Position numbers and translations under genes: made by a program | Virus record (IMG/VR): IMGVR_UViG_3300020582_000009 | Span: 1 to 57,497 of that record | DNA from: a virus | Lineage: Duplodnaviria > Caudoviricetes | Strand: one strand, 5' to 3' | DNA: 57,497 bases | Shown here: positions 4,631 through 56,940 of the stretch, piece by piece | Layout: each line of letters begins with the position of its first letter | How positions within the stretch are numbered: position 1 is the first letter of the stretch | The notes under the pieces: generated by a model | The model's database searches: none | Told to the model about the DNA's origin: nothing | What the model saw: only the letters and a program-made list of their open reading frames with translations

Positions 4631-5419
4631 ATGCCGCCTGATGCCCCGATCGAGCCTGTAGCCGAGCCGGTTGTTCCGCCGATCGTGGACGCGGTTGTCG
4701 AACCACCGATTCCTCCGGTCGAGCCTCCGGCGCCCGAGCTTCCGGCGCGGCGCGTCAACGATCCACTGATTTCGACGATTACGGGATTACGTGCGAAAAA
4801 TCGTGAATTGGAAACTCGCGCAGAAATCGCAGAACGCGAAGCGTCAGAAGCCAAAGCTCTGGCGGATCGTTTAGCTCGCAGCGGTCAAAATCCTGTTGCG
4901 CCCGTTGTTACGGCGCCGCCGCGCATATCGGATGACGAGGAAGTTGATCGCCGGGCCAACTACAAGTTATTTGTTCGCGACGTAAATCAGGTGCAAAGTC
5001 GCGGTATGGAGAAATACGGCACACAATTTGTGGAAACGATCAAAGCCCTTGAAGCCGTCGGCGCGAATAGCGACGTTTTTGTCTCCGAAGTGATGGCTGT
5101 TGATCGTGCCAATGCTCATGTGCTTCTCAATACGCTGGCGCAAGACTTGGAACGCACGGTTTCTCTCGTCAACATGGATCCGACCAGCCGCATTGCGGCG
5201 CTCACGAGGATGGCTATGGCTCCCGCCGCCGATGCAGACGCAAATTCGAAACAGCCGACAACTCCGCCCGCGCCGAGAGTCAGTCGCGCGCCCGCACCGC
5301 CGCCCCCGGTTGAACCGTCTTCGACCAAGATCAAGGACTGGCGTTCTGATGAAGCGAGCGACGAGGAATTCGACGCCGGTTTCACTGAAATGATGAAGCG
5401 GAAGTCGGCACGGCGCTAA
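4631..5419 (+). CDS. Capsid scaffolding protein
   Basis: Between portal and coat; Pro/Glu-rich N-terminus, coiled coil, VSRAPAPPPPV motif, short charged C-terminal helix. Confidence 0.8.
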   Translation: MPPDAPIEPVAEPVVPPIVDAVVEPPIPPVEPPAPELPARRVNDPLISTITGLRAKNRELETRAEIAEREASEAKALADRLARSGQNPVAPVVTAPPRISDDEEVDRRANYKLFVRDVNQVQSRGMEKYGTQFVETIKALEAVGANSDVFVSEVMAVDRANAHVLLNTLAQDLERTVSLVNMDPTSRIAALTRMAMAPAADADANSKQPTTPPAPRVSRAPAPPPPVEPSSTKIKDWRSDEASDEEFDAGFTEMMKRKSARR

Positions 5420-6165
5420 GGCTTCTGCTCCCGACGCCTCTGCCAAACAATTCGCATTTTTTCTGCTTGTCGCGCCTTCGCTTCGGGATCAGCCCATCTC
5501 GTTTGTTTACGATTTCGCAGACCGCCATTGGGATCAGCCCATTGCATTTTTGTAGCTTCCGAATGGCGCCTGATCGTCTCTGGATCACGTTTCGTGGCCT
5601 TCACTCTTTCGGAGTGCTGTTCTCGAACCCCGATTTTATTCCAATGCAACGCGAGTTTTGTGCTTACTTGCGCGCGATGTTTAGGGTCAGTCCATAATTC
5701 TTTGCTAAGAACGGATTGCAGCGCACGACGTTCTGGAGAACGGGCAAATTCGGCAAGACTTTTTCCTCTTTCTCTTAACCATTCCAGATATACTTGATCA
5801 TCCGATTGTTTCTTCGTAATGCCGAAATTGATCTTAGCGCGCGTAGCCTCGCTGTTGATAAAATTGGTCCGCCCGAGATTCGAAAGCCGCGAATTGAAAC
5901 ATTCATGTGTGGAAATAGCTTCCAATTCGGCTTTCGCTCTTTCTTGATAATCGTTATTCTCTAGATTCGAAAGTATCGAAAATGCAAAAGCCGCTGCGCC
6001 GTATTTATTCCAAGCGCGCTGCAAATACGAACAGTGATGCCGCTGGCATTTGAGGTCGCTTCGATGTTCAATCCACCTACGTTTCGGATGGAGACAACTT
6101 CCGATATAACATCGGCCGGACGCAAGATGGGTTATGGCGTAAATGAAACAAGGTCGCGTATCCAT
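5416..6165 (-). CDS. GIY-YIG homing endonuclease, free-standing and antisense
   Basis: FIYAITHLASGRCYIGS..RRW.EH..L N-terminal GIY-YIG domain; repeated HSE..K / WADP NUMOD3-like C-terminal units; lower GC than neighbours. Confidence 0.88.
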   Translation of the reverse strand: MDTRPCFIYAITHLASGRCYIGSCLHPKRRWIEHRSDLKCQRHHCSYLQRAWNKYGAAAFAFSILSNLENNDYQERAKAELEAISTHECFNSRLSNLGRTNFINSEATRAKINFGITKKQSDDQVYLEWLRERGKSLAEFARSPERRALQSVLSKELWTDPKHRAQVSTKLALHWNKIGVREQHSERVKATKRDPETIRRHSEATKMQWADPNGGLRNRKQTRWADPEAKARQAEKMRIVWQRRREQKP

Positions 6166-10331: not shown

Positions 10332-10814
10332 ATGCTGAGAACCGTTCGCGATATTCTGATCGGCGCCTTCATTGCCGCCATGGTCACGTCAGCATTCGCG
10401 GTGTTCGGCCGCGCGCCGTTGCAATATGCCGATGAGGCGCCGATTGACCAGAAATGGCTTTACGGTCTTTCCGGCGGCTACAATTACACATTCCAGAATG
10501 CGATCTCCGCTGCCGGTACGACACAGGCGACCGCGACCGTTTTGCCGAACGAAGTCTATCTGATGGAGGTCGATACGGCGAGCGGCAGCGCAACGGGCGT
10601 GGCGTTGCCGCCATGCGTGCCGAATTCGACCGGAGGCCAGCAGATCGTACTCTACAACAACACATCCACCGGCTTGACCGTCTATCCTGCGGTCGCCAAC
10701 AATCCGGTGACGAATTCGCAGGATACCATCAACAATTCCACGACATTGAGCCTTTCGGGTCATACGCAGACGGCCTTCGCCTGCATCAAATCCGGGGTGT
10801 GGAGTTCGTCTTGA
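10332..10814 (+). CDS. Signal-peptide-bearing virion-type beta-domain protein
   Basis: MLRTVRDILIGAFIAAMVTSAFA signal; Ser/Thr-rich; AAGTTQATAT..GVALP..YNN....TVYP domain; 2 Cys. Confidence 0.75.
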   Translation: MLRTVRDILIGAFIAAMVTSAFAVFGRAPLQYADEAPIDQKWLYGLSGGYNYTFQNAISAAGTTQATATVLPNEVYLMEVDTASGSATGVALPPCVPNSTGGQQIVLYNNTSTGLTVYPAVANNPVTNSQDTINNSTTLSLSGHTQTAFACIKSGVWSSS

Positions 10815-15480: not shown

Positions 15481-16040
15481 TGGCAAATGAAGCTGCGCTG
15501 CGCAAAGCTATCGAAGGTCCGCCGCGTTCGCGCGGCTCGGCCCTCAATTCGATTGTCCCGGCTCCGCCACCCGAGATCAATAATCAGAAGCCGGCATTGT
15601 CATCGGGAATGATGGCTGCGCCGCAAGGCGCGATGCAGCCACAGCAGCAGATGCCGGCGCCGAATCATGCACAGACGGTTTCGGCATTGCGGCATTTCCA
15701 GGCGATCATCGGTGAGTTGAAGGGCTTATTGGAATCCGACGAGATCGGCAAGACCGACATGAAATCCGCGATCATCGACGGCACCACGCGGCTTGTGGCG
15801 GAGCGGATGCTCTCGCCGGCCGATGCCGTGACGCAACTCGCTTCCGTGCCGACGCGGCCTTTCGAACAAAAGCAATGGGCGCAGAATCTTCTGCAACAGA
15901 CCATGCAGGCGCGTGACGGTGTGGTGATGCATCATGCGATGGCATTTGCGGGTGCGCCTCCGGGCGAAGCGCCGGATCAGGACGACCATTTGCAGAATAT
16001 GCAAGGGTTGATGTCGCAGTATAGTGGAGGACAGCAATGA
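15477..16040 (+). CDS. Probable internal virion protein
   Basis: Gln/Pro/Met-rich ORF within the ejection cluster. Confidence 0.65.
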   Translation: MMANEAALRKAIEGPPRSRGSALNSIVPAPPPEINNQKPALSSGMMAAPQGAMQPQQQMPAPNHAQTVSALRHFQAIIGELKGLLESDEIGKTDMKSAIIDGTTRLVAERMLSPADAVTQLASVPTRPFEQKQWAQNLLQQTMQARDGVVMHHAMAFAGAPPGEAPDQDDHLQNMQGLMSQYSGGQQ

Positions 16041-16567
16041 TAAATCGGCGAGAAATTATTAAAAAATCAGCCGCCGCTCTCGCGATTGGTTCTATCGGTC
16101 TTCCGGCTCTCGCCGAGAAAGAACCAAATATCATTCCCGAATCGGAAATCCGGGAGCATATTCTCAGATGCCAAAAAGGTTGCAACTATGCCTTTATGTT
16201 GCAGGTATTTCTTGAGCAGTTGCATGGCGTCAAAATAATGCCATTGCACCGGGATATTTCTGAACAGGGCGCTAGAATTCATGCTCTCTCTGATGATGGC
16301 CGCAAATTTCAACAATTGGCGGCGCATGGTGATCCGATGGAATTTGGAAGTGTTCATGTCAGAAAACTTGCGGAAAAAATAGCGGAAAAGGGAAATGTTA
16401 TCCAATTCGCCAAACTGTTAATTCCCAGTCATGGTTGGATTTCGCCAATTTACGGCGACGCTTGGCACAATATTGAAGATGCCGTGAGTTTGCGCGGTCT
16501 CATAGTATGGAATGAGAATCGCCATCACGATATGAGGCTTGATGCGCTTTTTACGGCATGGAGTTGA
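16037..16567 (+). CDS. AT-rich inserted gene with twin-arginine (Tat)-like signal
   Basis: MINRREIIKKSAAALAIGSIGLPALA. Confidence 0.65.
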   Translation: MINRREIIKKSAAALAIGSIGLPALAEKEPNIIPESEIREHILRCQKGCNYAFMLQVFLEQLHGVKIMPLHRDISEQGARIHALSDDGRKFQQLAAHGDPMEFGSVHVRKLAEKIAEKGNVIQFAKLLIPSHGWISPIYGDAWHNIEDAVSLRGLIVWNENRHHDMRLDALFTAWS

Positions 16568-16950
16568 ACGTGGAAAAATTCAGTCCTGAATGGTATTGCA
16601 CAGATGAAGCGGCAGAACATCGCAAAGCGATGTATTTAGTGGAATTTGTCAAAGCGGTCGATCATGTCGATTATGGAGAAAAAGAGCCAAAGCATGATGC
16701 TGCATTTTGGTATTATGACGTGATTTTAGACGCGCCTCGTTGGATAGCTTTGAAACCGACGCATAGATGGTATCGGATTGTTTTTGAAGATTATGGAAAA
16801 GTTTATCCCGAAAGACTCAATGAAGGTGCCCGCGGAATTGCAGACGGTTCAATTAAAGTCTATGAATTGGTCGGGTCCCCGGAAGCTGTCGCTAAATTCA
16901 CGGCGCTTGCGAAAGGCTTCAAAATAATTGAAGGCGACAAGAATGCCTGA
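16558..16950 (+). CDS. AT-rich inserted hypothetical protein
   Basis: 130-aa ORF overlapping both neighbours by a few bases. Confidence 0.6.
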   Translation: MELNVEKFSPEWYCTDEAAEHRKAMYLVEFVKAVDHVDYGEKEPKHDAAFWYYDVILDAPRWIALKPTHRWYRIVFEDYGKVYPERLNEGARGIADGSIKVYELVGSPEAVAKFTALAKGFKIIEGDKNA

Positions 16951-21951: not shown

Positions 21952-23850
21952 TTGAAAAGATTCGGCTATCTTAGCGTCGTTATCGCTTTCGCGCTATGGG
22001 CTTTTGGGTTTTCCCAAGCTCTGGCGCAAGGTACGATATTACCTCCCGGCGAAACCTGTTTTTCAGCTTTGGCGCCGACTTCCGGAGGACCAGGCGGTAC
22101 AGGAACCGGCTTTGTCGGCCTCTTGGGCACGATCACGGCCGGGACCGGCGGCACGACCGGGACCTATGGCGGCGTTCTCCTCACTGGCGGCCATGGCACG
22201 GGCGCCACGGCCAATATCACGGTGTCGGGCGGCGGAGTGACCGCCGTCGCGATCCTCAGTCCAGGCGTCTCCTATGTGGCCGGAGACGTGCTTTCAGCGG
22301 CGTCCGGCAATATCGGGAACGTCTCCGGCTTTTCGGTTCCGGTTTCCAGCGTCGCCATCAACCAGTCCTTGGCCGGCGGCACGGTCGCGTTCTATGTGCC
22401 CAATACCAGCACATTCAAGCAGACGTGGTTCAATGCCGATCTCGGATCGAATCACCAGAACACCAATCCGGTCACGCTCGATGCCAACGGCTGCGCCATC
22501 ATCTATGGCTCGGGAATCTATCGGCAGGTCCTGGAAGATTCGCTCGGCAATATCATCTGGGACCAACTGACGGCTTCGACCAATCAGAACAATCCCTATT
22601 GGGCGAATCTGGCCGGCGGAACGCCGAATGCCATTACGGTCACGGATACTGCGTTCGCGGCGATTGACGGCCAGATCATCGGTTTCATTCCGCTCTATAC
22701 CAACACTGGCGCGACGACACTTGATCCGTCAGGCTACGGCGTCTACCCGATCGTCAAAGACACTTCGACCGGAGCGGTGGCGCTCACGGGTGGCGAGATT
22801 GTCGCCAATTCGCCCTCGAATGTGGTCTATGTTTCATTCTCGGCGTCGCAGCAGAATTTTCATATCATCAATCTGGTGCAGACGGCGGGTTCTGTCGCCT
22901 CATCGGTTTCGATCACGCCGCAAGGTTATCTGAATCTCGTCGGCGTCGCCAGCGGTGGTCCGATCCAGGGCGCTTCCGATGTGACCGGAGCGCAGACGGT
23001 CTATTACAGTCCCTATGTGGGCAATCAGGTTCCAGTCTGGAATGGATCTTCGTTCACGATCCTTCCGTTTGCCGAATTGCAGATCGCGCTTTCGTCGGCG
23101 CAATCGGCCAGCACGATCTATGACGTATGCATCTTCAATAACGCCGGGACCGCCGTCGGCGTTTTTGGGCCGGCATGGTCCAGTTCAGTCGCGGGGTCCA
23201 GTACGCGCGGCACCGGGGCCGGCTCCGCTCAAATCCAATATCAGAATGGCGTGCTGGTGAACTCGTTCGCGATCAATGCCAATAACGGATCGAACCCATA
23301 TACGATTCCGGCGCTCGAATGTACCTACGTCGGTTCGATCTATGTGGACGCGACGCAAGGGCAGGTCAGCAACTATCGGACATGGGGACAAAGCCGCAAA
23401 TGGGGAATCTGGAATCCCTATAATTGCGTGCCGATCTATTTGCAGGCCGGAGATTCCACATCGTCATGGAGTTACACGACCAATAAGACGTTGCAGCCGG
23501 CCAACAACAATACTGCTAATAGTCTGACCGTGTTCAGCGGCCTGCCGAGTCAGATTTACGATCTTGAGGAAACCCAGCTTGTGGGAGTTTCGGCGAGCGA
23601 GGCGGATAACTTTCAGATTGGCATCGGCTACAACGTGACCAATGCCGCGTCGGGATTTTCACCGACATTGCTGTCACCGGCCGTTACCGCAAGCGGAGGA
23701 ACTGAAAATGCATTGGCGATCTATCTGGCTCCTCCTTCGCTTGGCATTAATACCGTGACGGCTCTCGAAGCCGCGTCGTTTGGCGGCGGGACGCTTACCT
23801 TTCATGGGACGATCGCCAATATGCTTCTCTCGGCGAAGTGGTGCGGCTGA
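21952..23850 (+). CDS. Tail fibre/tailspike with virion-attachment domain, preceded by a Sec signal peptide
   Basis: RBS AGGGGA then TTG; MKRFGYLSVVIAFALWAFGFSQALA|Q; LAGGTVAFYVPNTSTFKQTW..NTNPVTLDANG.AIIYGSG.YRQV..D..GN.IWDQLT podophage attachment motif; 6 Cys. Confidence 0.82.
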   Translation: MKRFGYLSVVIAFALWAFGFSQALAQGTILPPGETCFSALAPTSGGPGGTGTGFVGLLGTITAGTGGTTGTYGGVLLTGGHGTGATANITVSGGGVTAVAILSPGVSYVAGDVLSAASGNIGNVSGFSVPVSSVAINQSLAGGTVAFYVPNTSTFKQTWFNADLGSNHQNTNPVTLDANGCAIIYGSGIYRQVLEDSLGNIIWDQLTASTNQNNPYWANLAGGTPNAITVTDTAFAAIDGQIIGFIPLYTNTGATTLDPSGYGVYPIVKDTSTGAVALTGGEIVANSPSNVVYVSFSASQQNFHIINLVQTAGSVASSVSITPQGYLNLVGVASGGPIQGASDVTGAQTVYYSPYVGNQVPVWNGSSFTILPFAELQIALSSAQSASTIYDVCIFNNAGTAVGVFGPAWSSSVAGSSTRGTGAGSAQIQYQNGVLVNSFAINANNGSNPYTIPALECTYVGSIYVDATQGQVSNYRTWGQSRKWGIWNPYNCVPIYLQAGDSTSSWSYTTNKTLQPANNNTANSLTVFSGLPSQIYDLEETQLVGVSASEADNFQIGIGYNVTNAASGFSPTLLSPAVTASGGTENALAIYLAPPSLGINTVTALEAASFGGGTLTFHGTIANMLLSAKWCG

Positions 23851-25898
23851 TGCGCGTCGTCAGGATTGTAGCACTGTTGTTTGGACTTGTATTTGCGTCA
23901 TCGCATGCGCATGCGCAACTTTCGCAGACGGCGCTTCAAACTCTCATTGCCAATAATCTTCCTTCGCAATCCAACGGCGCCATTACCCCCGCTATCATGG
24001 TGGCGACGCTCGATCAGATTGCATTATCCTATAATCAGTCCGGATCAGCATGTGCTACCGGCACGCTTTCCCCGTTCCAGCCGTTTACCAATACCGCCGT
24101 CACTACGGCGACGACCTATGGCATCTACAATCCGACGACATCGACATGCCTGAATTTTCTTACGTTTAATCAGACCACCGGCGGATTCGGTTTCTCGCCA
24201 ACCCCAACTGTCTCAACGTCGGCATTTTCATTCAGCGTCACACTCAACCCTACGACAACGCTGGTTACGCCAGTTCTTTTCATCGAAAACCTGACCGGCT
24301 CGGCGTCGTCAACCGCTTACACGATGCAGGTTGGCAACAACAATGACAATTTGAACGATCCGAACGGCTTGTTCATCGGTTATTTTCAAGATGTTGCCAA
24401 TGGCGCCAGTCTGACCGGCAATCGTACGGTTGTTCAGTCGTTAATGGATTTTAGCCACACATCCTCCAATTCGGGCACGACTTTTTACACCGCCAACGGG
24501 ATGTGGGCATACGCCTCGGCGGCGGATGGCGGCAATCCGAATCTGGCCGGCGGCAATACCGTCTGTTCTTTGCTCGCCGGCGCGACTGGATGGACCGAAT
24601 GCGAGTCCTTTGAGGCCGATGTGAGCATTGGCGCAAGTGCCTCTGCGACCGCCAAAATGGGTATCAATATCGTTCTCCTTGGCACCGGCGCTCCTTCTCC
24701 GCTCGCTCCCGATCGCACACAGGCGACTTATAGTCTTGGTCTTGATCTGGTCGCGGAGGACACCTCGACGCCGGGGTTTAAAACCGGAATCTCGTTCGGC
24801 AATCCTTTTGGTTATTGGCCAATTGCCACGACAGGAACGATGATCGGAACGACCGCTCCTATTACGACTGACGCATATGCGGCGGCTTACGGAGTGGATT
24901 TTAACAACGTCGTTTTCAGCACAGCCTTTCTGCGCGCCAATAATGGTGTTGCCGGCACCGTGGGTTTTCTTGAACAGAACGGCGCAGCGACGCTGTCACC
25001 CAATCTCGGCGCCGCGCCGAACGCAACGGCAGATGCGATCGTTCTATCCGATACAGTTGTCGCTGCTGCGGGCAATCAGCAATTTAGCCCCGCACTCCAT
25101 TTTATCGGACAGGGTTGGAAAACGAACGCCACGGCTGCCTCGCAGCAGGTCGAATATATCAATTATCTTGTTCCAGTTCAGGGCACCGCCAATCCAATGG
25201 CGAACCTTGTTTGGGCCTATCAGAATAATGGCGGTGGTTACAATACGGTTGCCACGCTGACCGCAGACAATTATGCGGCGGGTTTCGGAACTTTCATCCT
25301 TAATGGCACCAACGGATCAGCGTTTTCTCTGGAAGTGGCTGGCACGGAAGAAGGTCGTTTCCTTTCGTCGGTAGGTTCGTTCGGGGTTCAGGTATCGAAC
25401 GGTGGCACGTTAATTTTTAGCACGGCAGCAGGCAATCGGAATTTTGCTCAGTTCGCCGGCAACACAAATTCAGGCGGCGAATTCCAATTTGTCAATGCGC
25501 CGACTATAGCCTCAGCCAGCGGCGCTACGCTCGATGAAATCAACATCGAAGCCGAGACGCAGACGATTTCCGGCTCGACCAATATCACGACCGCGGCCGG
25601 CTTCAACATCATGTCGATCTATCGCTCGACCTATGTGGCATCAAGTGCCATCACCATAACCAATGCGGCGTCGCTCGCCATCGCGAACTGCCCGCTCGCC
25701 GGCACTGATATCACGATCACCAATTGCTATGCGCTATGGGTGCAAGCGGGTGCTTCAATGTTTGCCGGCACAGTCAGTTCGACGGCGGGTTTCATCGCCA
25801 ATGGAAATACAGGCATAACTCAAACCTGTACCGTCAATCAGGCGAAGACCCTTGTTTTCACACTGGGCATCCTCACGAGTGGATCATGCAATTCATAA
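23850..25898 (+). CDS. Fibre-like beta-rich protein with Sec signal peptide
   Basis: MRVVRIVALLFGLVFASSHAHA|Q; Thr/Ala/Gly/Ser-rich; 8 Cys in four neighbouring pairs. Confidence 0.78.
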   Translation: MRVVRIVALLFGLVFASSHAHAQLSQTALQTLIANNLPSQSNGAITPAIMVATLDQIALSYNQSGSACATGTLSPFQPFTNTAVTTATTYGIYNPTTSTCLNFLTFNQTTGGFGFSPTPTVSTSAFSFSVTLNPTTTLVTPVLFIENLTGSASSTAYTMQVGNNNDNLNDPNGLFIGYFQDVANGASLTGNRTVVQSLMDFSHTSSNSGTTFYTANGMWAYASAADGGNPNLAGGNTVCSLLAGATGWTECESFEADVSIGASASATAKMGINIVLLGTGAPSPLAPDRTQATYSLGLDLVAEDTSTPGFKTGISFGNPFGYWPIATTGTMIGTTAPITTDAYAAAYGVDFNNVVFSTAFLRANNGVAGTVGFLEQNGAATLSPNLGAAPNATADAIVLSDTVVAAAGNQQFSPALHFIGQGWKTNATAASQQVEYINYLVPVQGTANPMANLVWAYQNNGGGYNTVATLTADNYAAGFGTFILNGTNGSAFSLEVAGTEEGRFLSSVGSFGVQVSNGGTLIFSTAAGNRNFAQFAGNTNSGGEFQFVNAPTIASASGATLDEINIEAETQTISGSTNITTAAGFNIMSIYRSTYVASSAITITNAASLAIANCPLAGTDITITNCYALWVQAGASMFAGTVSSTAGFIANGNTGITQTCTVNQAKTLVFTLGILTSGSCNS

Positions 25899-26368
25899 AA
25901 ATAGCTATGCTTTTTCTATCGCTCGCTCATGCTGAGGATGCATCCAAACCGGCAGCCCTTACCTATGAACAGGTCGAGTCTGTGCTGGCTGGCCTTATGG
26001 GTCTTGACAAAGGAACCGATCAAATTGCCAAGGACGGTGCACAAGAACACGTAGTTCACCACGCCTTCAATCTCGGCGAGGGCTTGCGGGTCCAAAACGG
26101 TTTGCTGGAAGCACGGTTGCTGGACGCCGATCGGACTTATACTCAGGCCAAGAACGCGCTGGTGCGCCAATACGCGGACGGCGGCGATAAGGTGCCTGAT
26201 AAGAACAGGATCGAATTCGAGGCGGCAGCGCAGAAGTTGGCACAGACATCATCCGGCCTCGTCCCCCCCCATTTCAAAATGGAGGAACTAAAATTAAAAG
26301 ATAATCCGGATATTACGTCATCAATCATCGCATTGTTGCAGCCTATCATTGATGAGACATCGCAATGA
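25886..26368 (+). CDS. Helical protein with short signal peptide, fibre-chaperone position
   Basis: MQFIKIAMLFLSLAHA|E; charged helical body ending I..SIIALLQPIID. Confidence 0.65.
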   Translation: MQFIKIAMLFLSLAHAEDASKPAALTYEQVESVLAGLMGLDKGTDQIAKDGAQEHVVHHAFNLGEGLRVQNGLLEARLLDADRTYTQAKNALVRQYADGGDKVPDKNRIEFEAAAQKLAQTSSGLVPPHFKMEELKLKDNPDITSSIIALLQPIIDETSQ

Positions 26369-27867
26369 CCATCCACAAACGCTTGATGTTTCTTGCGACC
26401 TTGGCGTCTTTCGCGCTGGTATTTCTTTGCTTTGGCGCCAATGCAGAAACCATCACTATCACAGGTTCCTCGGGAGGCAGCGGAGGTGCCGTCTCATCCG
26501 TCACCGGCACAACCGGCCAAGTCACCTGCACCCCGACCACAGGCAATGTGATTTGCTCGCTGCCTTCGACGATCACGGAAGCGCTGACATTCGCGCCATC
26601 GGGCGGCCAAGAGTTTTTCTCCGTCTCTGGTGCCACGGGCGGAAACGCCACCACCACGATCTCGCACAGCACGACTTCCACGAGCGACCAGCAATGGACC
26701 GTTGTCAACGATAACGGCACTGACAGCACGATCATCTTCACCAATGGATCGGCGCGAGATAATACCACTATCGTCCGGCAGGCCAGCACGACAGCGATCG
26801 AGGCCACGGGGTCAGGACTATATCTAGGAACATCAACGAGTACCGCGCCGGTCATTTTATTTGCTGGCGGCGTCGTGAATGGGACTAACAATGCCATCAC
26901 GGTTTCTAGCCCGACCGCGATTGCGTTCAATCAGTACACGACACCCGGCGTGATCGTAAATGATTCCAGTGGCAATCTCACGTCGTCTACCGCGCTTGCG
27001 CTGACTAGCGCAGCGATTGCTCAGGGATCAATTACCACAAATCTTAAAGGTCTGAATCTGACTGCCACGTTCAATGCGGCAGGCACGACGTTCGATGCTC
27101 CACTGTTCGAGAACATCACTAATACGGCGAGTGCGGCAGGTAGTCTGATCGCGGACCTACAGGTTGGCGGTGTCAGCACGTTTAACGTTGGCATAGCTCC
27201 GTCATCTAGCGGTCCTCTGGTGTTAATAAATGCTACTGGCGCGGCCCCTACAACATTAGGCGTATTAAATTCTACGGGGCTTCAGATCACCGGCAACAGC
27301 ACGGCTGGCGGAAGTGTCGTGCTGGATGCAATAGGCACCACAGCAAACATAACTATAAATCGGATTAATGGTAGCGCGGCATCGCCGACTGCAATAACCT
27401 CGGCTCAAACGATATCTAATAACGTATCTGGCGGCTACGATAGTTCAGCAATTGGCGTGGGGGTTGAACTACAGGCCAAGTCCATCAACGCGTGGACCAC
27501 TAGCGATCACTCCGCTTACCTCGGCATCTTCACTGTGGCGGGGACCACGACGACGCTTTCCGAAAAAGTCCGTTTCCAAGGTTCGGGCGGCGTGACCGTG
27601 GGCAATGGTGTTATAGCGACTGATCCAGGGGCATCGAATCTCTTGGTCGGAGGCAATATCGCGATTAAAGCCACGGGACAGACGCTTGCGGCTGGCGAAC
27701 TTGGTATGGGCGAAATTACCGCTTCGGGAAGCGCACCCGGCGCCAGCAGCGCCAAGATGGAATGGGTCACCGGGACGAATGCCAATACATGCAAGCTGAT
27801 CGCCTATGCTGGCACGTCATCAACGCCAGTGACCATTGTGGACAACGTCGGGGCAGGCTGCACATGA
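26365..27867 (+). CDS. Fibre-like protein with Sec signal peptide
   Basis: MTIHKRLMFLATLASFALVFLCFGANA|E; VSSVTGT.GQV..PTTGNV..SLP and EKVRF..SGGV.VG fibre motifs; 4 Cys in mature part. Confidence 0.78.
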   Translation: MTIHKRLMFLATLASFALVFLCFGANAETITITGSSGGSGGAVSSVTGTTGQVTCTPTTGNVICSLPSTITEALTFAPSGGQEFFSVSGATGGNATTTISHSTTSTSDQQWTVVNDNGTDSTIIFTNGSARDNTTIVRQASTTAIEATGSGLYLGTSTSTAPVILFAGGVVNGTNNAITVSSPTAIAFNQYTTPGVIVNDSSGNLTSSTALALTSAAIAQGSITTNLKGLNLTATFNAAGTTFDAPLFENITNTASAAGSLIADLQVGGVSTFNVGIAPSSSGPLVLINATGAAPTTLGVLNSTGLQITGNSTAGGSVVLDAIGTTANITINRINGSAASPTAITSAQTISNNVSGGYDSSAIGVGVELQAKSINAWTTSDHSAYLGIFTVAGTTTTLSEKVRFQGSGGVTVGNGVIATDPGASNLLVGGNIAIKATGQTLAAGELGMGEITASGSAPGASSAKMEWVTGTNANTCKLIAYAGTSSTPVTIVDNVGAGCT

Positions 27868-28199
27868 AAAAACTGTTCCTCGCACTTTGTTTGGTCGCTG
27901 CTTTTGCGCCAGCACAGGCATCCGGTCCGGTCCCGGCTGTCAATACCGATATGGGCTGTACGGCGACAGGGCAGGTGGTTCAATACAACGGAAGCTCACT
28001 TTCTTGCAGCGCCCCACAGCGCCCGTTGGCAACAGTAGGCTCCGGCGCAAGCCAATTGCCGACATGCAATTCCGGCACCAAGGGCGCCATGTATATCGTT
28101 ACCGATGCCCTGACCCCGGTTGCCATAGCGACCGTTGTTGGCGGCGGTTCGGTTTCCATCGGCGTGACGTGTAACGGCACGAACTGGATCGTACAATGA
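27864..28199 (+). CDS. Small fibre-tip-like protein with Sec signal peptide
   Basis: MKKLFLALCLVAAFAPAQA|S; LPTC..G.KGA..IVTDA..VVGGGS..V.CNGTNW.V; 4 Cys in mature part. Confidence 0.75.
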   Translation: MKKLFLALCLVAAFAPAQASGPVPAVNTDMGCTATGQVVQYNGSSLSCSAPQRPLATVGSGASQLPTCNSGTKGAMYIVTDALTPVAIATVVGGGSVSIGVTCNGTNWIVQ

Positions 28200-28444
28200 T
28201 GCGCCGATTCCTTGCCGTCTTCGCGGTTCTGGCGGGGTTCATTGTGCCGACATTTGCACAAACTGCCGGACAATCCGTACCGCAACAAATATCCGTCTGC
28301 CAGCAGCTTCTTAATGAAGCTAACGCGCGGATTATCTTGCTCGATGCAAATTCGGCTAAGCAGATCGCAGATTTACAAAATAGAGTCGCTGACTTGCAAA
28401 AGCAAGTGGATGCTAAGCAGAAAGATGTGCCGCAAGAGAAATAG
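28196..28444 (+). CDS. Small exported coiled-coil protein
   Basis: MMRRFLAVFAVLAGFIVPTFA|Q; heptad repeat. Confidence 0.7.
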   Translation: MMRRFLAVFAVLAGFIVPTFAQTAGQSVPQQISVCQQLLNEANARIILLDANSAKQIADLQNRVADLQKQVDAKQKDVPQEK

Positions 28445-28450
28445 GGTCAT

Positions 28451-28696
28451 GTGGTGAAAGATAACATCTATTACATAGTCGTTGGAACGCTGGCCGCAGT
28501 CATGCTGGCGGTCATAGCCATTTTGCTGATCGGTCTATTTGATGCGCGGGTGGACAATGATAAAATCTTTGCCGTTCTTGGTCCCGCATTTCAAACGATC
28601 GTCGGTTGCTTCGTGGGAGTGCTCGGAAGCCGTGCGCTCAATCACGATAAGCCGGAAGAACGGGTCGAAGCGGGAAAACCCAAGACCGATTCTTGA
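28451..28696 (+). CDS. Two-TM membrane protein, holin-like
   Basis: Two hydrophobic helices and a charged tail; upstream of the endolysin. Confidence 0.6.
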   Translation: MVKDNIYYIVVGTLAAVMLAVIAILLIGLFDARVDNDKIFAVLGPAFQTIVGCFVGVLGSRALNHDKPEERVEAGKPKTDS

Positions 28697-28976: not shown

Positions 28977-29843
28977 ATGGCGATGCTCAACCAGCCGCCC
29001 AACACCTTCGGCTTCGATGCCTCGGTTCCGCTCAGCCGAGTTGTCGGCGGACTGTCCGCCATCGGCGTGACGGGTGTTGGCCGCTACGTCGCACTCGGCG
29101 AAGTCAATGCCTGGAAGGTGCTCACTCCCACCGAGGCCGTTGAACTCGCCATCGCCGGCATTGCCGTGTTTCCGATCTACGAAACCACGGCGAGTGCTGC
29201 CGATCATCGTTCGGCCGATGGTGCTTATGCTAATGGTTATCTACCGAGTGTCGGTCTTTTCCCGGACACTGGCGTGTGTCTCTACGATACGCAGGACGGT
29301 GACGCGACCGCAGCGAATATGCCTGCAATCATTCCCGCCGTAAAATCGTTCTTTGCGCAGACGCCGGGCTATCGCCGTGGCATCTATGCCGGGGGTTATT
29401 GCGCAACGCAGCTCAAGGAGCAGAACCTCATCGACCTTGTCTGGATCACGCAATCCATGGAATTCACCGGCACGCAGCAAGTTCTTTCCGGCGACGGCTG
29501 GGACATGGTGCAGCGCCTTCCCGCCGATATGACCATCAACAATGCCTTCATCAACGTTGACCCGGACAGCAAGCGGCTTCCGAATGCCGACATCGGCGCC
29601 CGCGTTCCATGGAACGGCGCTGTACCGGAGAACGCGGTCTTGAGCGTGGTTGCAACGCAGATGCTTTTGAACAAGGCGACTAATGCCGGACTGGCGACCG
29701 ACAACGAAAGCGGGCCGAATACCGACGCTGCACTGGCGGCATTTCTGGTTAAGGGCGGCTTTGAAACGCTGACGTGGGGCGGCGCGATCGAGGCATTGTT
29801 GGAGCAGGCGGGAGTGTCGATCTACAAGCCGAGTGTCGCATGA
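28977..29843 (+). CDS. Endolysin candidate, DUF1906/GH25-like glycoside hydrolase with C-terminal PG-binding-like domain
   Basis: GFDAS, VGRY, K.LT..EA, VFPIYET, Y..GIYAG; Q.LLN..L.TD..SGP.T.AAL.AF. Confidence 0.78.
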   Translation: MAMLNQPPNTFGFDASVPLSRVVGGLSAIGVTGVGRYVALGEVNAWKVLTPTEAVELAIAGIAVFPIYETTASAADHRSADGAYANGYLPSVGLFPDTGVCLYDTQDGDATAANMPAIIPAVKSFFAQTPGYRRGIYAGGYCATQLKEQNLIDLVWITQSMEFTGTQQVLSGDGWDMVQRLPADMTINNAFINVDPDSKRLPNADIGARVPWNGAVPENAVLSVVATQMLLNKATNAGLATDNESGPNTDAALAAFLVKGGFETLTWGGAIEALLEQAGVSIYKPSVA

Positions 29844-30625: not shown

Positions 30626-31360
30626 ATGAAATTCTTTCGCAGACTGTCCATCGGCCTTATCGCGCTCGCCTTCGCCAGCGGTGCCCATGCGGCGGATATG
30701 GCGGTCAAGGTGGCGCCAAAGCCTATCGTCTATCCCACGTCCGCTTGCGGCCTGTTCTACGGCTTCAACGTGCAGGGCGGCGCTGGTGCCATCAACAACG
30801 GCCCTCCCGGCGCCGTGCAGATCGGGGGCGACATTGGTGGCGAGGTTGGCTACGCCTGCCCGACCGCCAGCGTTCCGTGGTTTGCTCAAGTCGAGTTGGA
30901 CTTCCAGAATCTCAATGCGGGCACGGCCGGTTTCTCCCTCAGCGGCCCGGCGATGGTCAAGGGCGAGGTTGCGATCCAGACGCCATTGCTGGCGATCTAC
31001 GAGAGCATCTTCAACGCCTCATCCTCGCAAACTCCGACCGTCACGACTTGGTTGCCGCCCGGCTATTCGGTCACCGGCACGCCGACCAACTACATCGGCC
31101 TCGTGACCACGCTCAATGACATTACGGCCCAGTACGGCGCCGGCAGCTACAAGGATTGGACGTGGACGCCGATCGGCGTCCGCACCGGCATCCTGTTCAA
31201 CGTGACCGGGCCGAAGGGCGTGCAGGTTGTCGCCGACGTGTTCGCCGAACTGGATAGCCAGAGCAATCAGATTTGCTTCGGCTCTGGCGTGCCGGTCGGC
31301 GCGTCAAGCTGCTCCAAGCTCGGCGAGTCGTGGACGGCTGGCATTGAGTTCAAGCTGTAA
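30626..31360 (+). CDS. Outer-membrane beta-barrel protein (Omp25/RopB-like)
   Basis: RBS GGAGAG; signal ending AHA|ADMAVKVAP; alternating beta-strands; C-terminal beta-signal WTAGIEFKL. Confidence 0.8.
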   Translation: MKFFRRLSIGLIALAFASGAHAADMAVKVAPKPIVYPTSACGLFYGFNVQGGAGAINNGPPGAVQIGGDIGGEVGYACPTASVPWFAQVELDFQNLNAGTAGFSLSGPAMVKGEVAIQTPLLAIYESIFNASSSQTPTVTTWLPPGYSVTGTPTNYIGLVTTLNDITAQYGAGSYKDWTWTPIGVRTGILFNVTGPKGVQVVADVFAELDSQSNQICFGSGVPVGASSCSKLGESWTAGIEFKL

Positions 31361-52176: not shown

Positions 52177-52815
52177 ATGTCACTTCTAATCGGCCATCCG
52201 ACATTAGAAACAATTGCCTCGCATTCTCCTGTGGCCGTCCCTGTCTTTGATCGCAAATGGTATATTGTTCAATGCTTTGGCAAGTCCGATAACCAGGCGC
52301 TCAATATTCTCGAAACCATGGGTCTGACGACCTATTACCCCAAAATCCTGGATCTTCGTAAAGTACCTCGCAATAAGCTTTCCCGCGCCCAACGCTCGAC
52401 CGATGTGGAAATCAAGCGCCCTCACGTTATTCCCCTTTTCCCTCGATACCTGTTTGCATGGTTCGATATCACCCGCGATTCGTGGCGCGATATCTTCAAA
52501 ATTGCTGGTGTCGGGGGATTGGTCTGCAAGAACGATATGCCGGTCTATATGCCGCAAGAGCAAATCGATAAATTCAAGAATCGCGAGAACAACGGCATCA
52601 TTCCAGGCTCGGCAACGGTGCGACTGACTTTCGGTATCGGCGACCATGTGAACGTTACGGCGGGTCCTTTCGCCTCATTTCCGGGGATTGTCGAAAAAGG
52701 CTTGGATATGGCGATCGGCGATCTTGACCCGACGGCACGCATCAAGGTAGCGGTGAATATCTTCGGACGTGCCACTCCCGTCGAATTGGAACTATGGCAA
52801 GTTGCCAAAGCGTAA
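52177..52815 (+). CDS. NusG/RfaH-family antiterminator in late-regulator position
   Basis: WYIVQ, PLFPRYLF, KOW GD.V.VTAGPFASFPG.V, V.VNIFGRATPVEL...QV. Confidence 0.9.
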   Translation: MSLLIGHPTLETIASHSPVAVPVFDRKWYIVQCFGKSDNQALNILETMGLTTYYPKILDLRKVPRNKLSRAQRSTDVEIKRPHVIPLFPRYLFAWFDITRDSWRDIFKIAGVGGLVCKNDMPVYMPQEQIDKFKNRENNGIIPGSATVRLTFGIGDHVNVTAGPFASFPGIVEKGLDMAIGDLDPTARIKVAVNIFGRATPVELELWQVAKA

Positions 52816-54116: not shown

Positions 54117-54794
54117 ATGATCGGATACCGCAAAGTCGTGATTGCCGGCGCGGCATTGACTGTTTCAGGCGCTATCGCGTTCGCGGCGGGCAATTGGTCC
54201 ACCCTGCCGCAGGTCGGCGAATCGTCGTTCTGCGCTTCGACCGTCACCGGCATTGTGCTGCCGACGCCGCAAGGACCGTTCGGCGTGGTGCCCGGTTCGA
54301 CGCAAGGAACGGGATCGTCAATTTGCGGACAGACCGTGCCGGCCGGCCCTGCGGCTTTAACGGGCACCGAGATCATTCCGGCGGACACGCAATTGTCCGG
54401 CAGTGCACCGCCGCAAACGGTCACCATCCCGATCGTGTTGTTCGATGCCGGAGCCTACACCTATACGTCGTGGCTCAATACGCTTGGCGCGTCGCCGAGC
54501 ACGTTGACCATTCCGAACAACACTAGCCTGTTCCTGCTCGATCCGACCGGCACTGTCACGTCGCTGACGCTCTATATGCCGTCGGCACCGCTCAATGGCC
54601 AGATGATTCGTATCGCTTCGACGCATACCATCACGAATCTCCTGTTGCAGGCTGCGACCGTCAACGGCGCCTTGAATGCGACCATCGAGAATTCTCCGAC
54701 GATCCTGACGGCTTCGACCACTGGACCGTTCAACTATGATTACATCTATTCGACGACCGCCATCAACGGACCGCTCTGGATTCGCGTCCAGTGA
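54117..54794 (+). CDS. Signal-peptide-bearing decoration/fibre-like protein
   Basis: RBS GGGAGA; MIGYRKVVIAGAALTVSGAIAFA|A; Thr/Ser/Pro-rich; L.P.GT..SLTL.MPS.P..GQ...W.RVQ terminal domain; 2 Cys. Confidence 0.78.
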   Translation: MIGYRKVVIAGAALTVSGAIAFAAGNWSTLPQVGESSFCASTVTGIVLPTPQGPFGVVPGSTQGTGSSICGQTVPAGPAALTGTEIIPADTQLSGSAPPQTVTIPIVLFDAGAYTYTSWLNTLGASPSTLTIPNNTSLFLLDPTGTVTSLTLYMPSAPLNGQMIRIASTHTITNLLLQAATVNGALNATIENSPTILTASTTGPFNYDYIYSTTAINGPLWIRVQ

Positions 54795-54915
54795 TTGTGG
54801 CTATCGTCATCATGGGGTGTGCGGCCGTGATCCTCATCAGCCGCACACTCCGCCTACCAACCGACTTTGAGAACAGTTGCAAAGCGCGGCATAGGGCGCA
54901 AGCCATCGTGAGAGA

Positions 54916-56046
54916 GTGGGAAGACAAGCGATGGCGGGAGTCCTCGGCTTTGTGATTGTGACGATGTTCTGGCCTGGGATGGCCGGAGCCGGGGTCGCAT
55001 CCAAATGGGTCGCTTTGCAGGTCTTGCTGCCGCTCACGCTTTGTTTCGTTCAAGTGCGCGTTACGGCAGTGCACTTAGTTATGGCGGCGATCTTCGCTTG
55101 GGCTTTGGTGTCGTTGGCGTGGGTCGAAGTGCTGCCAGACGGAATCGAGGGGCTGTCATTTCTCGGAGTAATCGCTCTTTCGTTTCTGGTCGGTCATGAC
55201 ATCAATATCGACTGTCTGTTGCGCGGTATGGGACTGGGACTATGGATATCGTCGGCTGTTGCTATCCTGCAATGGTTCGGCATTTATCCGGTGACATCCG
55301 CGGGTGATGGCGGTCCTTCGACTGGGCTTTTCGTCAACTCCATCTTTCTCGGCGAAATCAGCGCCGCGGTGCTGCTCGGGCTCATCGCGCAAAGTTCATG
55401 GATTATCGCGCTCGGCGTCATACCGGGCTTGCTTCTCAGTGGGGCGCGTGGGGCGGTTTTAGCGGCCGGAATTGCATTCATCGCGTGGTGCGTGCCACGC
55501 ATTCGGGAAAGGACGCTGATCATCGTTCCGGTTCTCACAATGCTGTTGCTGGCGGTCGAACCCGACAAATGGCTCTATTCGCAGACATGGGCCACGCGGC
55601 TGACGTTCTGGCGCGATACGATTGAGGGGTTGACATGGCGGGGACATGGCATCGGATCGTTCGTCTCGATGTTCCCGGCTTATGGCGACGGCATCGATCT
55701 GGTCTCTATCCAGCCGACCCATGCTCACAATGATTTCCTCGAACTTGCGTTCGAACTCGGATTGCCGGGAGTGATACTTGGCGCGCTTCTGGTCGGCATG
55801 GTACTTTGGCGTGCGCGAGAGCGCGAGAGGCTGGTTCTACTCACGCTGGGAATCACTGCTCTATTCGGGTTTCCGCTTCACATGGCCTGCACTGCCTTTC
55901 TATTCGGTGCTGTGGCGGGTCACGCTGCTGGGGGCTGGGATAGGGTTCGGATCGGCACACTTTTTGGCCGATCGGGCGTTTACGAAGGGCGCCAATTCGC
56001 TGACCTTGGCGGATTTGCAGCGGGCGGCGAGGCTCTACCCCTATGA
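54916..56046 (+). CDS. O-antigen ligase / Wzy_C family polytopic membrane protein (WaaL/PglL-like)
   Basis: About 11-12 hydrophobic segments; GLFVN, LSGARGA.LA, RL.FW..T, GHG.GSF, HAHNDFLEL.FELG..G, FP.H motifs. Confidence 0.88.
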   Translation: MGRQAMAGVLGFVIVTMFWPGMAGAGVASKWVALQVLLPLTLCFVQVRVTAVHLVMAAIFAWALVSLAWVEVLPDGIEGLSFLGVIALSFLVGHDINIDCLLRGMGLGLWISSAVAILQWFGIYPVTSAGDGGPSTGLFVNSIFLGEISAAVLLGLIAQSSWIIALGVIPGLLLSGARGAVLAAGIAFIAWCVPRIRERTLIIVPVLTMLLLAVEPDKWLYSQTWATRLTFWRDTIEGLTWRGHGIGSFVSMFPAYGDGIDLVSIQPTHAHNDFLELAFELGLPGVILGALLVGMVLWRARERERLVLLTLGITALFGFPLHMACTAFLFGAVAGHAAGGWDRVRIGTLFGRSGVYEGRQFADLGGFAAGGEALPL

Positions 56047-56215
56047 TCATGAATACCGGCTGGGGCCGGCGCGGTTGATCATCCGCGATAATGTCTGGTA
56101 TGATCCGGCATTCGCAATCGAATTACTGGAAAGTGTGAAAAAGAACGATCCAAACTCGCATTACTTGCAGGCTTGGATAGATGCCTTTCAGGAACGCCAG
56201 AAAATACGGCCATAA
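55907..56215 (+). CDS. TM-anchored TPR-like protein in the +1 frame overlapping the ligase 3' end
   Basis: (M)LWRVTLLGAGIGFGSAHFLADRAF...LQRAARLYPYD..YR...A.ELLE...K.DPNS. Confidence 0.6.
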   Translation: MLWRVTLLGAGIGFGSAHFLADRAFTKGANSLTLADLQRAARLYPYDHEYRLGPARLIIRDNVWYDPAFAIELLESVKKNDPNSHYLQAWIDAFQERQKIRP

Positions 56216-56227
56216 CGGAGAAAAACC

Positions 56228-56392
56228 ATGGCAGACGACATCGGCGACATCAAGGAAATCCGCGGCACGTCCATGGCGCTCAACGGCCAGAAAGGCCAAG
56301 GCGCGCAAAAGCCGTCGGCCATGGGCAAAGACGATCCGGGCGGCACCAAGCCACCGGAAGCGCGCGATGAGCACGTTCCGATGCCGAAGTGA
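56228..56392 (+). CDS. 54-aa hydrophilic protein (not in ORF track)
   Basis: RBS GGAG; MADDIGDIKEIRGTSMALNGQKGQGAQKPSAMGKDDPGGTKPPEARDEHVPMPK. Confidence 0.6.
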   Translation: MADDIGDIKEIRGTSMALNGQKGQGAQKPSAMGKDDPGGTKPPEARDEHVPMPK

Positions 56393-56430
56393 TTCGGTTT
56401 TTCTGAATCATGCGCCGACAAAGCCGCACC

Positions 56431-56940
56431 ATGCACAAGGCAATCCTTCGATTGGCGTGCGCGCTTTTCGGCGCATGGGTCTTATCGGCTCAGGCGCAGC
56501 AGCCGACTATCTCCTGCGCCTGGAACACGGGGCACACGAATTACGCCTGTGAGGAATCGCCGGCCGGCGTATCAAGTGCGGCCGAAAGCGGCCACGTCAT
56601 GCGCGCCAAGGCCGGCGTCATGGTCGGCTTTCAGGTCAACAACTGGGACACGTCCGCCGGCAAAACGGTGATGGCGCTCGATGCCAATGCTATTCCAGCC
56701 AATGGAACATTGGCTGTATGTTCCTATACCAATGGTACGCCGAACACCAATCCCTGCATCATGAAATGGTACGGCGTGCCGACCGCGCCATCGTCGTCGC
56801 AGCCGGCGACATTGGGAGCGAACTGGGCGCCGGGTCCCAATCTGCATTTCTATAACGGACTTGTCTTTGTATGCAGTTCGACGGGGCCGACGTCGCTGAC
56901 TCTGAGTTCGCAATGCACGTTTTCGGCGGAGTTGCAGTGA
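56431..56940 (+). CDS. Signal-peptide-bearing decoration-like beta-sandwich protein
   Basis: MHKAILRLACALFGAWVLSAQA|Q; 6 Cys in mature part; abuts the terL start. Confidence 0.78.
   Translation: MHKAILRLACALFGAWVLSAQAQQPTISCAWNTGHTNYACEESPAGVSSAAESGHVMRAKAGVMVGFQVNNWDTSAGKTVMALDANAIPANGTLAVCSYTNGTPNTNPCIMKWYGVPTAPSSSQPATLGANWAPGPNLHFYNGLVFVCSSTGPTSLTLSSQCTFSAELQ

Follow-up and report, generated by a model that had tools for sequence, protein, structure and literature searches.

A tail fibre locus with predicted signal peptides and paired cysteines in an environmental P22-like podophage

The IMG/VR virus record IMGVR_UViG_3300020582_000009, which is 57,497 bases long, rated 100% complete, and analyzed here in full (hereafter, the window), carries at positions 21952 to 28444 of the plus strand six consecutive genes, A to F, whose products all begin with what appear to be signal peptides. 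The phage is P22-like, with a P22-type portal (PF16510, E = 4.3e-127) and a P22 coat (PF11651, E = 1.9e-23) in Pfam, a gp10-like head-closure protein (phrog_578, 3.6e-80) and a DNA-ejection protein (phrog_598, 6e-20) in PHROGs, a scaffold gene, and an 885-amino-acid (aa) internal protein bearing a SleB-type cell-wall hydrolase domain. Bases 4 to 148 recur at 57353 to 57497 (145 nucleotides [nt] at 99.3% identity), and the large terminase open reading frame (ORF) leaves the 3' end and continues at the 5' end, indicating that the genome is circularly closed or terminally redundant. IMG/VR lists the record as linear despite its overlapping ends. Genes A to F follow the ejection genes and precede a holin-like gene and an endolysin gene, which is the tailspike position of P22-like phages; A and B overlap by 1 nt (23850), B and C by 13 nt, and C/D, D/E, and E/F by 4 nt each, which makes the six one translationally coupled block. 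Neither Pfam nor PHROGs supplied a name for any of them.

The N-termini of all six products have the same plan: between one and three basic residues, then a hydrophobic segment free of charges, then an AxA-type site. Gene A starts at a TTG at 21952, preceded by a AAAGGGGAA ribosome-binding site, and its predicted leader (residues 1 to 25, 21952-22026) reads MKRFGYLSVVIAFALWAFGFSQALA/QG, where the slash marks the predicted cleavage site; this leader contains neither a twin arginine nor a cysteine, and so no lipobox. The corresponding sites are SSHAHA/QL in B, SLAHA/ED in C, FGANA/ET in D, APAQA/SG in E, and PTFA/QT in F. A preliminary description of this DNA had reported basic-hydrophobic-AxA leaders on these six genes and on three others, at 10332, 54117, and 56431. 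The start codons do exist, and with a home-made heuristic for the n, h, and c regions and the AxA site, a crude score rather than a trained predictor, A to F reached 7.3 to 10.4 (C was lowest, at 7.3) and the three additional genes all reached at least 8.3. The scan found an uncharged hydrophobic h-region of about 8 to 20 residues in the window leaders. The heuristic, to which cleaved signals and signal-anchors look alike, called 22 of 67 gene models, and the 13 that scored at least 8.3 comprise five of A to F (not C), the genes at 10332, 54117, and 56431, and those at 16037 (Tat-like), 30626 (resembling an outer membrane protein, or OMP-like), 28451 (holin-like), 54916 (Wzy_C), and 21069 (a doubtful reverse ORF).

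Starts were called by eye and with a simple ORF script, and the leaders could in principle be artefacts of wrong start codons or chance hydrophobic stretches. A downstream translation start, which the preliminary description had raised as a possibility, was looked for in gene A, and there is no in-frame ATG, GTG, or TTG at the mature N-terminus, which excludes an internal restart at that position. Together with the ribosome-binding site before A, the translational coupling of the six genes, and the recurrence of leaders in nearly all of 120 listed homologues from independent assemblies (see below), this makes an artefact very improbable, and we reject it.

By homology, gene A (21952..23850, 632 aa) is a genuine tail fibre or tailspike gene with a virion-attachment module. 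Behind the predicted signal lie an N-terminal strand (residues 26 to 40, including C36), a Gly-rich beta insertion of about 100 aa (residues ~41 to 136), the conserved podophage attachment module (residues 137 to 215, including C181), and C-terminal jelly-roll domains. Residues 138 to 212 align with residues 18 to 90 of the tailspike of Pseudomonas phage PAE2 (44% identity over 75 aa, E = 4e-13), residues 140 to 212 resemble the beginnings of fibre proteins encoded by Ralstonia phage P4282 and by PAE2, and residues 314 to 632 are similar to a protein of Pseudanabaena phage Pam5 that is annotated as a tail spike. The claim that A retains a podophage attachment domain behind its signal therefore holds as homology to PAE2 but not as membership in the Pfam family Head_binding (the P22 gp9 N-terminal domain), to which A has no match; no Pfam family matched at E<=0.1. 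An AlphaFold2 (AF2) model built with 98 homologues (mean predicted local distance difference test [pLDDT] 87.9) consists of a detached helix at residues 4 to 18, a low-confidence linker at 19 to 30, and an all-beta body in which C36 and C181 each fall within a beta strand. The model has 183 matches at E<=1e-3 among viral models in BFVD, of which the named ones are mostly tail fibres, and at the level of single domains its PDB matches are TNF-like lectins, lectin-like jelly rolls, and phage knob or fibre domains. A Foldseek search of PDB with the whole model placed Cry-toxin cores in the top rows (TM-score 0.10 to 0.14), which we judge to be multi-domain noise, and a sequence-profile search of PDB gave nothing below E = 0.12. 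No beta-helix was found in the model, giving A the look of a lectin-type fibre rather than a depolymerase. A lies at the tailspike locus and is the only window protein with a tailspike attachment module; as far as homology can tell, no other candidate for receptor binding carries a module for attachment to the virion.

A large protein search recovered 487 homologues of A at E<=1e-3; the 120 that were listed are almost all metagenomic, many on contigs of 57 to 62 kb, and nearly all have a leader with a conserved A(Q/A)ATLLPPGEQCF motif behind it. We aligned 98 of these 120, omitting 22 with truncated, over-extended, or fragmentary N-termini (P0007, 10, 11, 13, 14, 26, 33, 35, 43, 46, 55, 61, 86, 88, 92, 97, 100, 102, 107, 109, 114, 115). 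Mean identity in the aligned set is 36% in the leader, 65% in the next 25 residues, and 66% in the attachment module, which is among the best conserved parts of A. The leader is the least conserved part, yet it keeps the properties of a signal peptide: it is 19 to 35 residues long, its n-region is net positive in 97 of 98 sequences, its best 9-residue hydropathy is at least 2.07 in all 98, and small residues occupy position -3 (A/V/G/T in 92/98) and position -1 (A/G/S in 93/98). A leader that varies in sequence while its properties stay constant, with sharp conservation from +1 onward, suggests a cleaved signal peptide and not a structural element. The five related IMG/VR contigs that we compared (64 to 70% identity) retain the leader on A, and in all four related loci that reach past A the next fibre gene or genes bear leaders as well.

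The same alignment bears on another possibility, a leader that acts as a signal-anchor or as a signal of low efficiency, which would leave the fibres tethered to the membrane or partly in the cytoplasm, to be collected there by the virions. Among the 98 relatives, 66 have a cysteine near the end of the leader, usually within ALSC or VLSC, five to six residues before the AxA site (a region that corresponds to residue 20 of the window gene A), and a relaxed lipobox is found in 49 of 98; given that the heuristic does not separate anchors from cleaved signals, both observations leave room for such tethering. The strict lipobox L-[AS]-[GA]-C, however, occurs in only 1 of 98, and the small residues at -3 and -1 and the onset of conservation exactly at +1 argue for cleavage, as does the register of homologues that have no signal (next paragraph). 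We consider a tethered or partly unexported form quite unlikely.

P22 gp9 and its homologues in PAE2, Xanthomonas phage PBR31, and Rhodoferax phage P26218 occupy the same genome position as A, after the ejection genes, and tailspikes of the PAE2/PBR31 type share a homologous N-terminal module with it, but unlike A the tailspikes of cultured podophages start at Met1 without a leader (read directly for PAE2). The corresponding PAE2 ORF, which is unannotated, lies behind a lytic-transglycosylase ejection protein; its product has no leader and starts with MTQLLPNGKQHF.... Of 50,697 GenBank phage records searched, 30 matched, and the module is present in 25 of these, each of them a small P22-like podophage, with every alignment beginning at query residues 19 to 32, behind the leader; these alignment starts suggest that the 25 proteins are leaderless, the N-terminus having been read directly for PAE2 only. 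A comparison of residues 130 to 235 of A with 1.84 billion representative proteins yielded 3362 clusters at E<=1e-3, in which the N-terminal domain family has three architectures: one in which an ATLLPNGKQQF... motif directly follows Met1, a second in which a leader precedes the same type of motif, and a third, to which A belongs, with a leader and a Cys motif (...QCF) and usually the Gly-rich beta insertion of about 100 residues. In the signal-bearing short form P0231, residue 22 aligns with residue 2 of the signal-less PAE2 protein (53% over 90 aa, E = 1e-23), and the C...C of the former faces His...Glu (H...E) in the latter. This register suggests that the predicted cleavage would recreate the natural N-terminus of the cytoplasmic versions. 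Among the best-scoring 150 of the 3362 representatives, 97 of the 129 that could be classified carry a leader, a proportion that is no measure of the share in the whole family, because the ranking favours kin of the signal-bearing query.

The distribution of cysteines follows that of the leaders. Mature counts are 6 in A, 8 in B, 4 in D, 4 in E, 2 at 10332, 2 at 54117, and 6 at 56431, so that our recount agrees with the even numbers given for seven beta-rich proteins in the preliminary description; C has none and F has one, an odd count. That description had also set these proteins against coat and ejection proteins without cysteine, and indeed the coat, the scaffold, and four ejection-type proteins have 0 each, but there are 7 in the portal and 5 in the gp10-like protein. 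Among window proteins with at least one cysteine, counts are even in 9 of 10 predicted exported proteins versus 20 of 39 cytoplasmic ones (Fisher p = 0.03). In the 98 aligned homologues of A, C36 and C181 are present throughout and C457 in almost every sequence, and the mature count is even in 90 (four in 62, six in 24, eight in 3, and two in 1). Additional cysteines come as co-varying pairs, namely 538+628 (5 sequences), 496+629 (4), 518+522 (3), 567+591 (2), 559+605 (2), and 492+631 (the window only), and in 9 sequences C324 takes the place of C393 while C457 is retained.

The contrast extends to the wider family. For the 129 classified sequences among the best-scoring 150 representatives, taken at 50% identity, even and odd counts are 87 and 10 in signal-bearing proteins versus 15 and 17 in signal-less ones (Fisher p = 1.7e-6), and signal-bearing representatives that lack the C36/C181 pair still divide into 26 even and 2 odd. 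The signal-less tailspikes of cultured podophages, unlike A, have neither the C36/C181 pair nor a parity bias. Relatedness inflates these parity counts, but the contrast persists between clusters at the 50% identity level and across architectures; 24 of 265 proteins were unclassifiable by the two motifs used, and several of these visibly bear leaders. Even cysteine counts and co-varying pairs go together with the signal, and the association between signal peptides and cysteine pairs that the preliminary description had proposed to look for in homologues is borne out.

These patterns are relevant to a reading without any export, in which the hydrophobic N-termini serve another role, the fibres assemble in the cytoplasm as in P22, and the cysteines oxidize after release. 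Assembly of tailed phages wholly within the cytoplasm is the textbook pathway and speaks for this reading, and post-release oxidation is considered possible in the accessible text of a study of a siphovirus tail (PMC13576161). It would leave unexplained why the least conserved part of A retains signal-peptide properties in 97 of 98 relatives, why signal-less homologues function without a leader, and why cysteine parity tracks the leader, and we regard it as distinctly improbable. Conservation, leader statistics, register, and cysteine parity instead strongly support the proposal that the leaders are cleavable export signals on real fibre proteins whose cysteine pairs are structural.

Of the genes behind A, B (23850..25898, 682 aa, signal residues 1 to 22) appears to encode a second fibre. 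Its 8 cysteines form neighbouring pairs (68/100, 239/251, 614/626, and 660/680), it has repeat segments in common with tail-fibre proteins, three of which contain Peptidase_S74 (the endosialidase chaperone domain), and several partial homologues combine a leader with even, high cysteine counts. Over its first 63 aa it is similar to second fibres, likewise signal-bearing, of an IMG/VR relative (L006). A complex prediction with three copies of A residues 26 to 240 and three of B residues 23 to 110 scored 0.00 and is silent either way on docking; that B docks on the insertion domain of A is a guess. Gene D (26365..27867, 500 aa, signal residues 1 to 27, mature cysteines 55/64 and 476/499) encodes a third fibre-like protein, whose Atlas neighbours are phage fibre clusters (Mtd_N, Peptidase_S74, and Phage_fiber_2) that all score <0.9 and serve as leads only; a word-pattern search of IMG/VR found no relatives of D.

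The remaining genes of the block are less easily placed. Gene C (25886..26368, 160 aa, signal residues 1 to 16) encodes a helical protein for which a homologue search returned, outside the "longer" and "shorter" length classes, only C itself; its Atlas neighbours are viral hypothetical proteins, its single-sequence fold has a pLDDT of 51.9, too low for use, and a role as a periplasmic helper would be a guess. Gene E (27864..28199, 111 aa, signal residues ~1 to 20) encodes a small beta-rich predicted exported protein with no family match in Pfam, PHROGs, or NCBIfam, the last of which gave nothing useful for any of ten predicted exported or lysis proteins. Gene F (28196..28444, 82 aa) has a hydrophobic N-terminus, either a signal or a transmembrane (TM) segment, followed by a charged helical region that, by eye, may form a coiled coil, and matches a family of unknown function (phrog_22246, E = 1.1e-3). 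F may be an i-spanin-like protein of the lysis cassette rather than a fibre, and no credible lipobox ORF for an o-spanin partner was found on the plus strand between 27800 and 31500. Treating the entire cluster as fibres, as the preliminary description did, is thus too strong, with F possibly spanin-like, C helical and free of cysteine, and C and E unassigned. Because C to F are missing from the five relatives checked, the firm core is A and the variable fibre genes behind it.

Leader-bearing fibres also occur in other phages. A further IMG/VR survey covered 13 of 16 loci, the other three (L025, L028, and L029) lying on the same contigs as the relatives L006, L005, and L004. In other small podophage lineages, a leader-bearing version is present at the same locus, after ejection-type genes, in 6 of the 13 and a signal-less version in 5 of the 13, and one locus (L034) has three consecutive leader-bearing genes beside those for terminase and a P22-type portal. 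Leader-bearing, cysteine-rich fibre genes are present as well in ppBdUSDA122-1 (OP596612.1, 5285-9366; locus L018), a cultured lambda-like siphophage of Bradyrhizobium, in which the tail fibre WAX24263.1 (865 aa, 18 Cys) has the N-terminus MKLQRLLGAIGAVVMSVSTALA/AE and a C-terminus homologous to tail fibres in 223 phage records. The product of the preceding gene, WAX24264.1 (482 aa, 6 Cys), has a hydrophobic leader too, and both genes lie between that for a J-like tail protein and the lysis genes. This phage therefore resembles the window phage in the leader and many cysteines of its fibre and in the placement of the genes just before the lysis genes, but it is a siphophage and the N-terminus of its fibre is unrelated to that of A. 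The papers on these phages that were searched by term make no mention of signal peptides.

We favour a reading, to which we assign a probability of roughly 55%, in which the fibres of the window phage would be exported by Sec, cleaved by signal peptidase I, folded and oxidized in the periplasm, and joined to heads at holin-triggered lysis. A, B, D, and probably E, perhaps helped by C, would constitute a receptor-binding fibre set made as Sec-type pre-proteins. The chains would be exported unfolded and cut after AxA, which in A would restore the N-terminus that signal-less tailspikes have at Met1, and would then fold, trimerize, and acquire structural disulfides in the oxidizing periplasm, while DNA-filled heads with a closed portal and tail hub would remain in the cytoplasm. 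When holin and endolysin fire, the compartments would mix and the fibres would dock through the N-terminal module of A as the last step of assembly. Export, cleavage, and oxidation we infer from the sequences, and the joining of fibres to heads at lysis, in its timing and location most of all, is pure inference.

Such a route appears workable given three considerations: addition of the tailspike as the last step and in vitro, an endolysin without a signal, and the fibre block adjoining the lysis genes. In P22 the tailspike is the last addition to finished heads, and this addition works in vitro. The holin-like protein of the window (28451..28696, plus strand) has two TM segments and a weak match to phrog_126 (holin/anti-holin, E = 0.0041), and the endolysin (28977..29843, plus strand; PF08924, E = 2e-7; phrog_13480, E = 2.4e-6) has neither an N-terminal signal nor a signal-arrest-release (SAR) segment, from which it follows, on the general biology of holins, that the holin must pass large cargo. 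The location of the fibre locus upstream of holin and endolysin fits what is known of P22, rather than adding independent support.

Several points weigh against this reading. The crudeness of the leader scoring is one. A scan of genome contigs with A found no prophage copy among 68 candidate stretches, and in 401 sampled alphaproteobacterial genomes there were 5 with distant partial matches and nothing closer. Going by the late-leader cysteines, some relatives of A may be lipoproteins, which would fit poorly with simple release. The meeting of fibres and heads would be limited to a short, rapidly diluting lysis window. The cysteine count of F is odd, and C, E, and F are without an assigned role and absent from the relatives. 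Finally, disulfides in phage tails are possible without export, for instance through air oxidation after release, according to the accessible text of PMC13576161, so that cysteine pairs alone are no proof of periplasmic folding.

The exported proteins could alternatively have their function in the cell envelope, during infection or lysogeny, and not in the virion. Comparably to the bacterial glycanase WceF, they might mask or trim the polysaccharide receptor in the periplasm, which would bring about superinfection exclusion or keep progeny from sticking to debris. Precedents exist in bacteria. WceF of Pantoea stewartii is, in the accessible text, a Tat-exported, trimeric, tailspike-like glycanase that keeps a P22-type head domain (PMC7949094), and Bdellovibrio MAT fibres are signal-bearing, phage-tail-fibre-like trimeric adhesins, some with TNF-like or lectin tips (PMC10769870, likewise as far as its accessible text goes). 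WceF shares with A export (predicted for A) and an N-terminal domain of the phage head-binding type, but it is chromosomal, belongs to an exopolysaccharide cluster, has a Tat signal, is a beta-helix enzyme, and forms no part of a virion. A WceF-like glycanase function for A was rejected given its lack of a twin arginine, the absence of a beta-helix from its model, and its phage context. The MAT fibres show that fibres of this kind can fold after export, but they are bacterial adhesins of a predator, neither encoded by a virus nor joined to a capsid. In the window itself, an envelope role finds some encouragement in a phage-encoded Wzy_C protein flanked by predicted exported proteins. It is harder to reconcile with A being the sole protein with a tailspike module, such that a virion without A would have no identified receptor-binding protein; with the attachment module ranking among the best conserved parts of A; with a model that has lectin-like jelly-roll and knob matches at its C-terminus in place of a beta-helix enzyme fold; and with Sec alone stopping short of the cell surface. 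We consider an envelope role unlikely. The suggestion in the preliminary description that the proteins are secreted decoys or adhesins is weak as well, because Sec by itself delivers no farther than the periplasm and no receptor-binding candidate other than A has an attachment module.

Outside the A to F block, further genes on the plus strand encode predicted exported proteins. A 160-aa beta-rich protein (10332..10814) lies inside the head-completion module. Near the 3' end of the window, a 225-aa beta-rich protein (54117..54794) and a 169-aa protein directly upstream of the terminase gene (56431..56940), whose cysteines form neighbouring pairs, flank a polytopic membrane protein of the Wzy_C (O-antigen ligase/polymerase) family (54916..56046; PF04932, E = 3.4e-9). 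This Wzy_C gene and its predicted exported, cysteine-paired neighbours (54117-56940) could form a serotype-conversion module or, more speculatively, a system that glycosylates the exported fibres in the periplasm. The C-terminal halves of the proteins at 10332-10814, 27864-28199 (gene E), and 54117-54794 look alike by eye, being short, beta-rich, and S/T/N-rich with a near-terminal Trp, and the three may be paralogues. Downstream of the lysis genes, the OMP-like protein (30626..31360, 4 mature Cys) is predicted to be exported and is an accessory protein, not a fibre; it has a 47% identical homologue in an IMG/VR relative (L005, 14916-15611). When used in the genome-contig scan, it recovered no prophage copy and a single weak match (42% over 68 aa) in an uncultured alphaproteobacterial metagenome-assembled genome, which is the sole hint at a host.

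Other features of the window are recorded here for completeness. Positions 16037-16950, inside the ejection-protein module, encode a 176-aa protein with a Tat-like leader (MINRREIIKK...ALA/EKE) and a CxxxC motif, and this protein and the next ORF, of 130 aa, are absent from the five related contigs. On the minus strand, an ORF at 5416-6165 lies between the scaffold and coat genes and, judged by eye from its motif, encodes a putative GIY-YIG homing endonuclease. The product of 52177-52815 has a NusG domain (PF02357, E = 3.3e-14); its gene precedes the late genes by a few genes, and the protein may serve the phage in antitermination or as a processivity factor. A search for tRNA genes in the window came back empty, and a scan for promoters and terminators gave no excess over shuffled sequence, with counts at or below expectation.

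Phage proteins that use the host Sec pathway before or during release are familiar from filamentous and membrane-containing phages, from spanins, and from SAR endolysins. In tailed phages the known Sec users of this kind are lysis or accessory proteins and not receptor-binding fibres, and filamentous phages assemble at the membrane without lysis. The literature searched, in which subscription journals are sparsely covered, yielded no report of a tailed phage whose tailspikes or tail fibres bear signal peptides. The proteins themselves are recognizable fibres, and it is the implied route of fibre assembly that would be new.

If the favoured reading is true, it would have multiple implications for the biology of tailed phages. 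It would add an assembly route tied to holin timing. It would also explain the source of structural disulfides in fibres, for which no phage machinery is known according to the accessible text of PMC13576161. Fibre-less heads mixed with periplasmic extract are predicted to reconstitute infectivity, and receptor-binding proteins taken from metagenomes would need periplasmic or otherwise oxidizing expression without the leader. The presence of the same feature in the cultured phage ppBdUSDA122-1 makes the question directly testable in a tractable system. More broadly, and with a little less than even odds in our estimation, many environmental tailed phages may finish their virions in two compartments that holin triggering unites, with heads and tail hubs made in the cytoplasm and fibres exported by Sec, cleaved, and locked by disulfides in the periplasm, where phage-encoded envelope enzymes such as the Wzy_C protein might also modify them. 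The infectivity of tailed phages would then depend on SecYEG, LepB, and DsbA as host factors, and a new checkpoint would connect the timing of lysis with the completion of virions.

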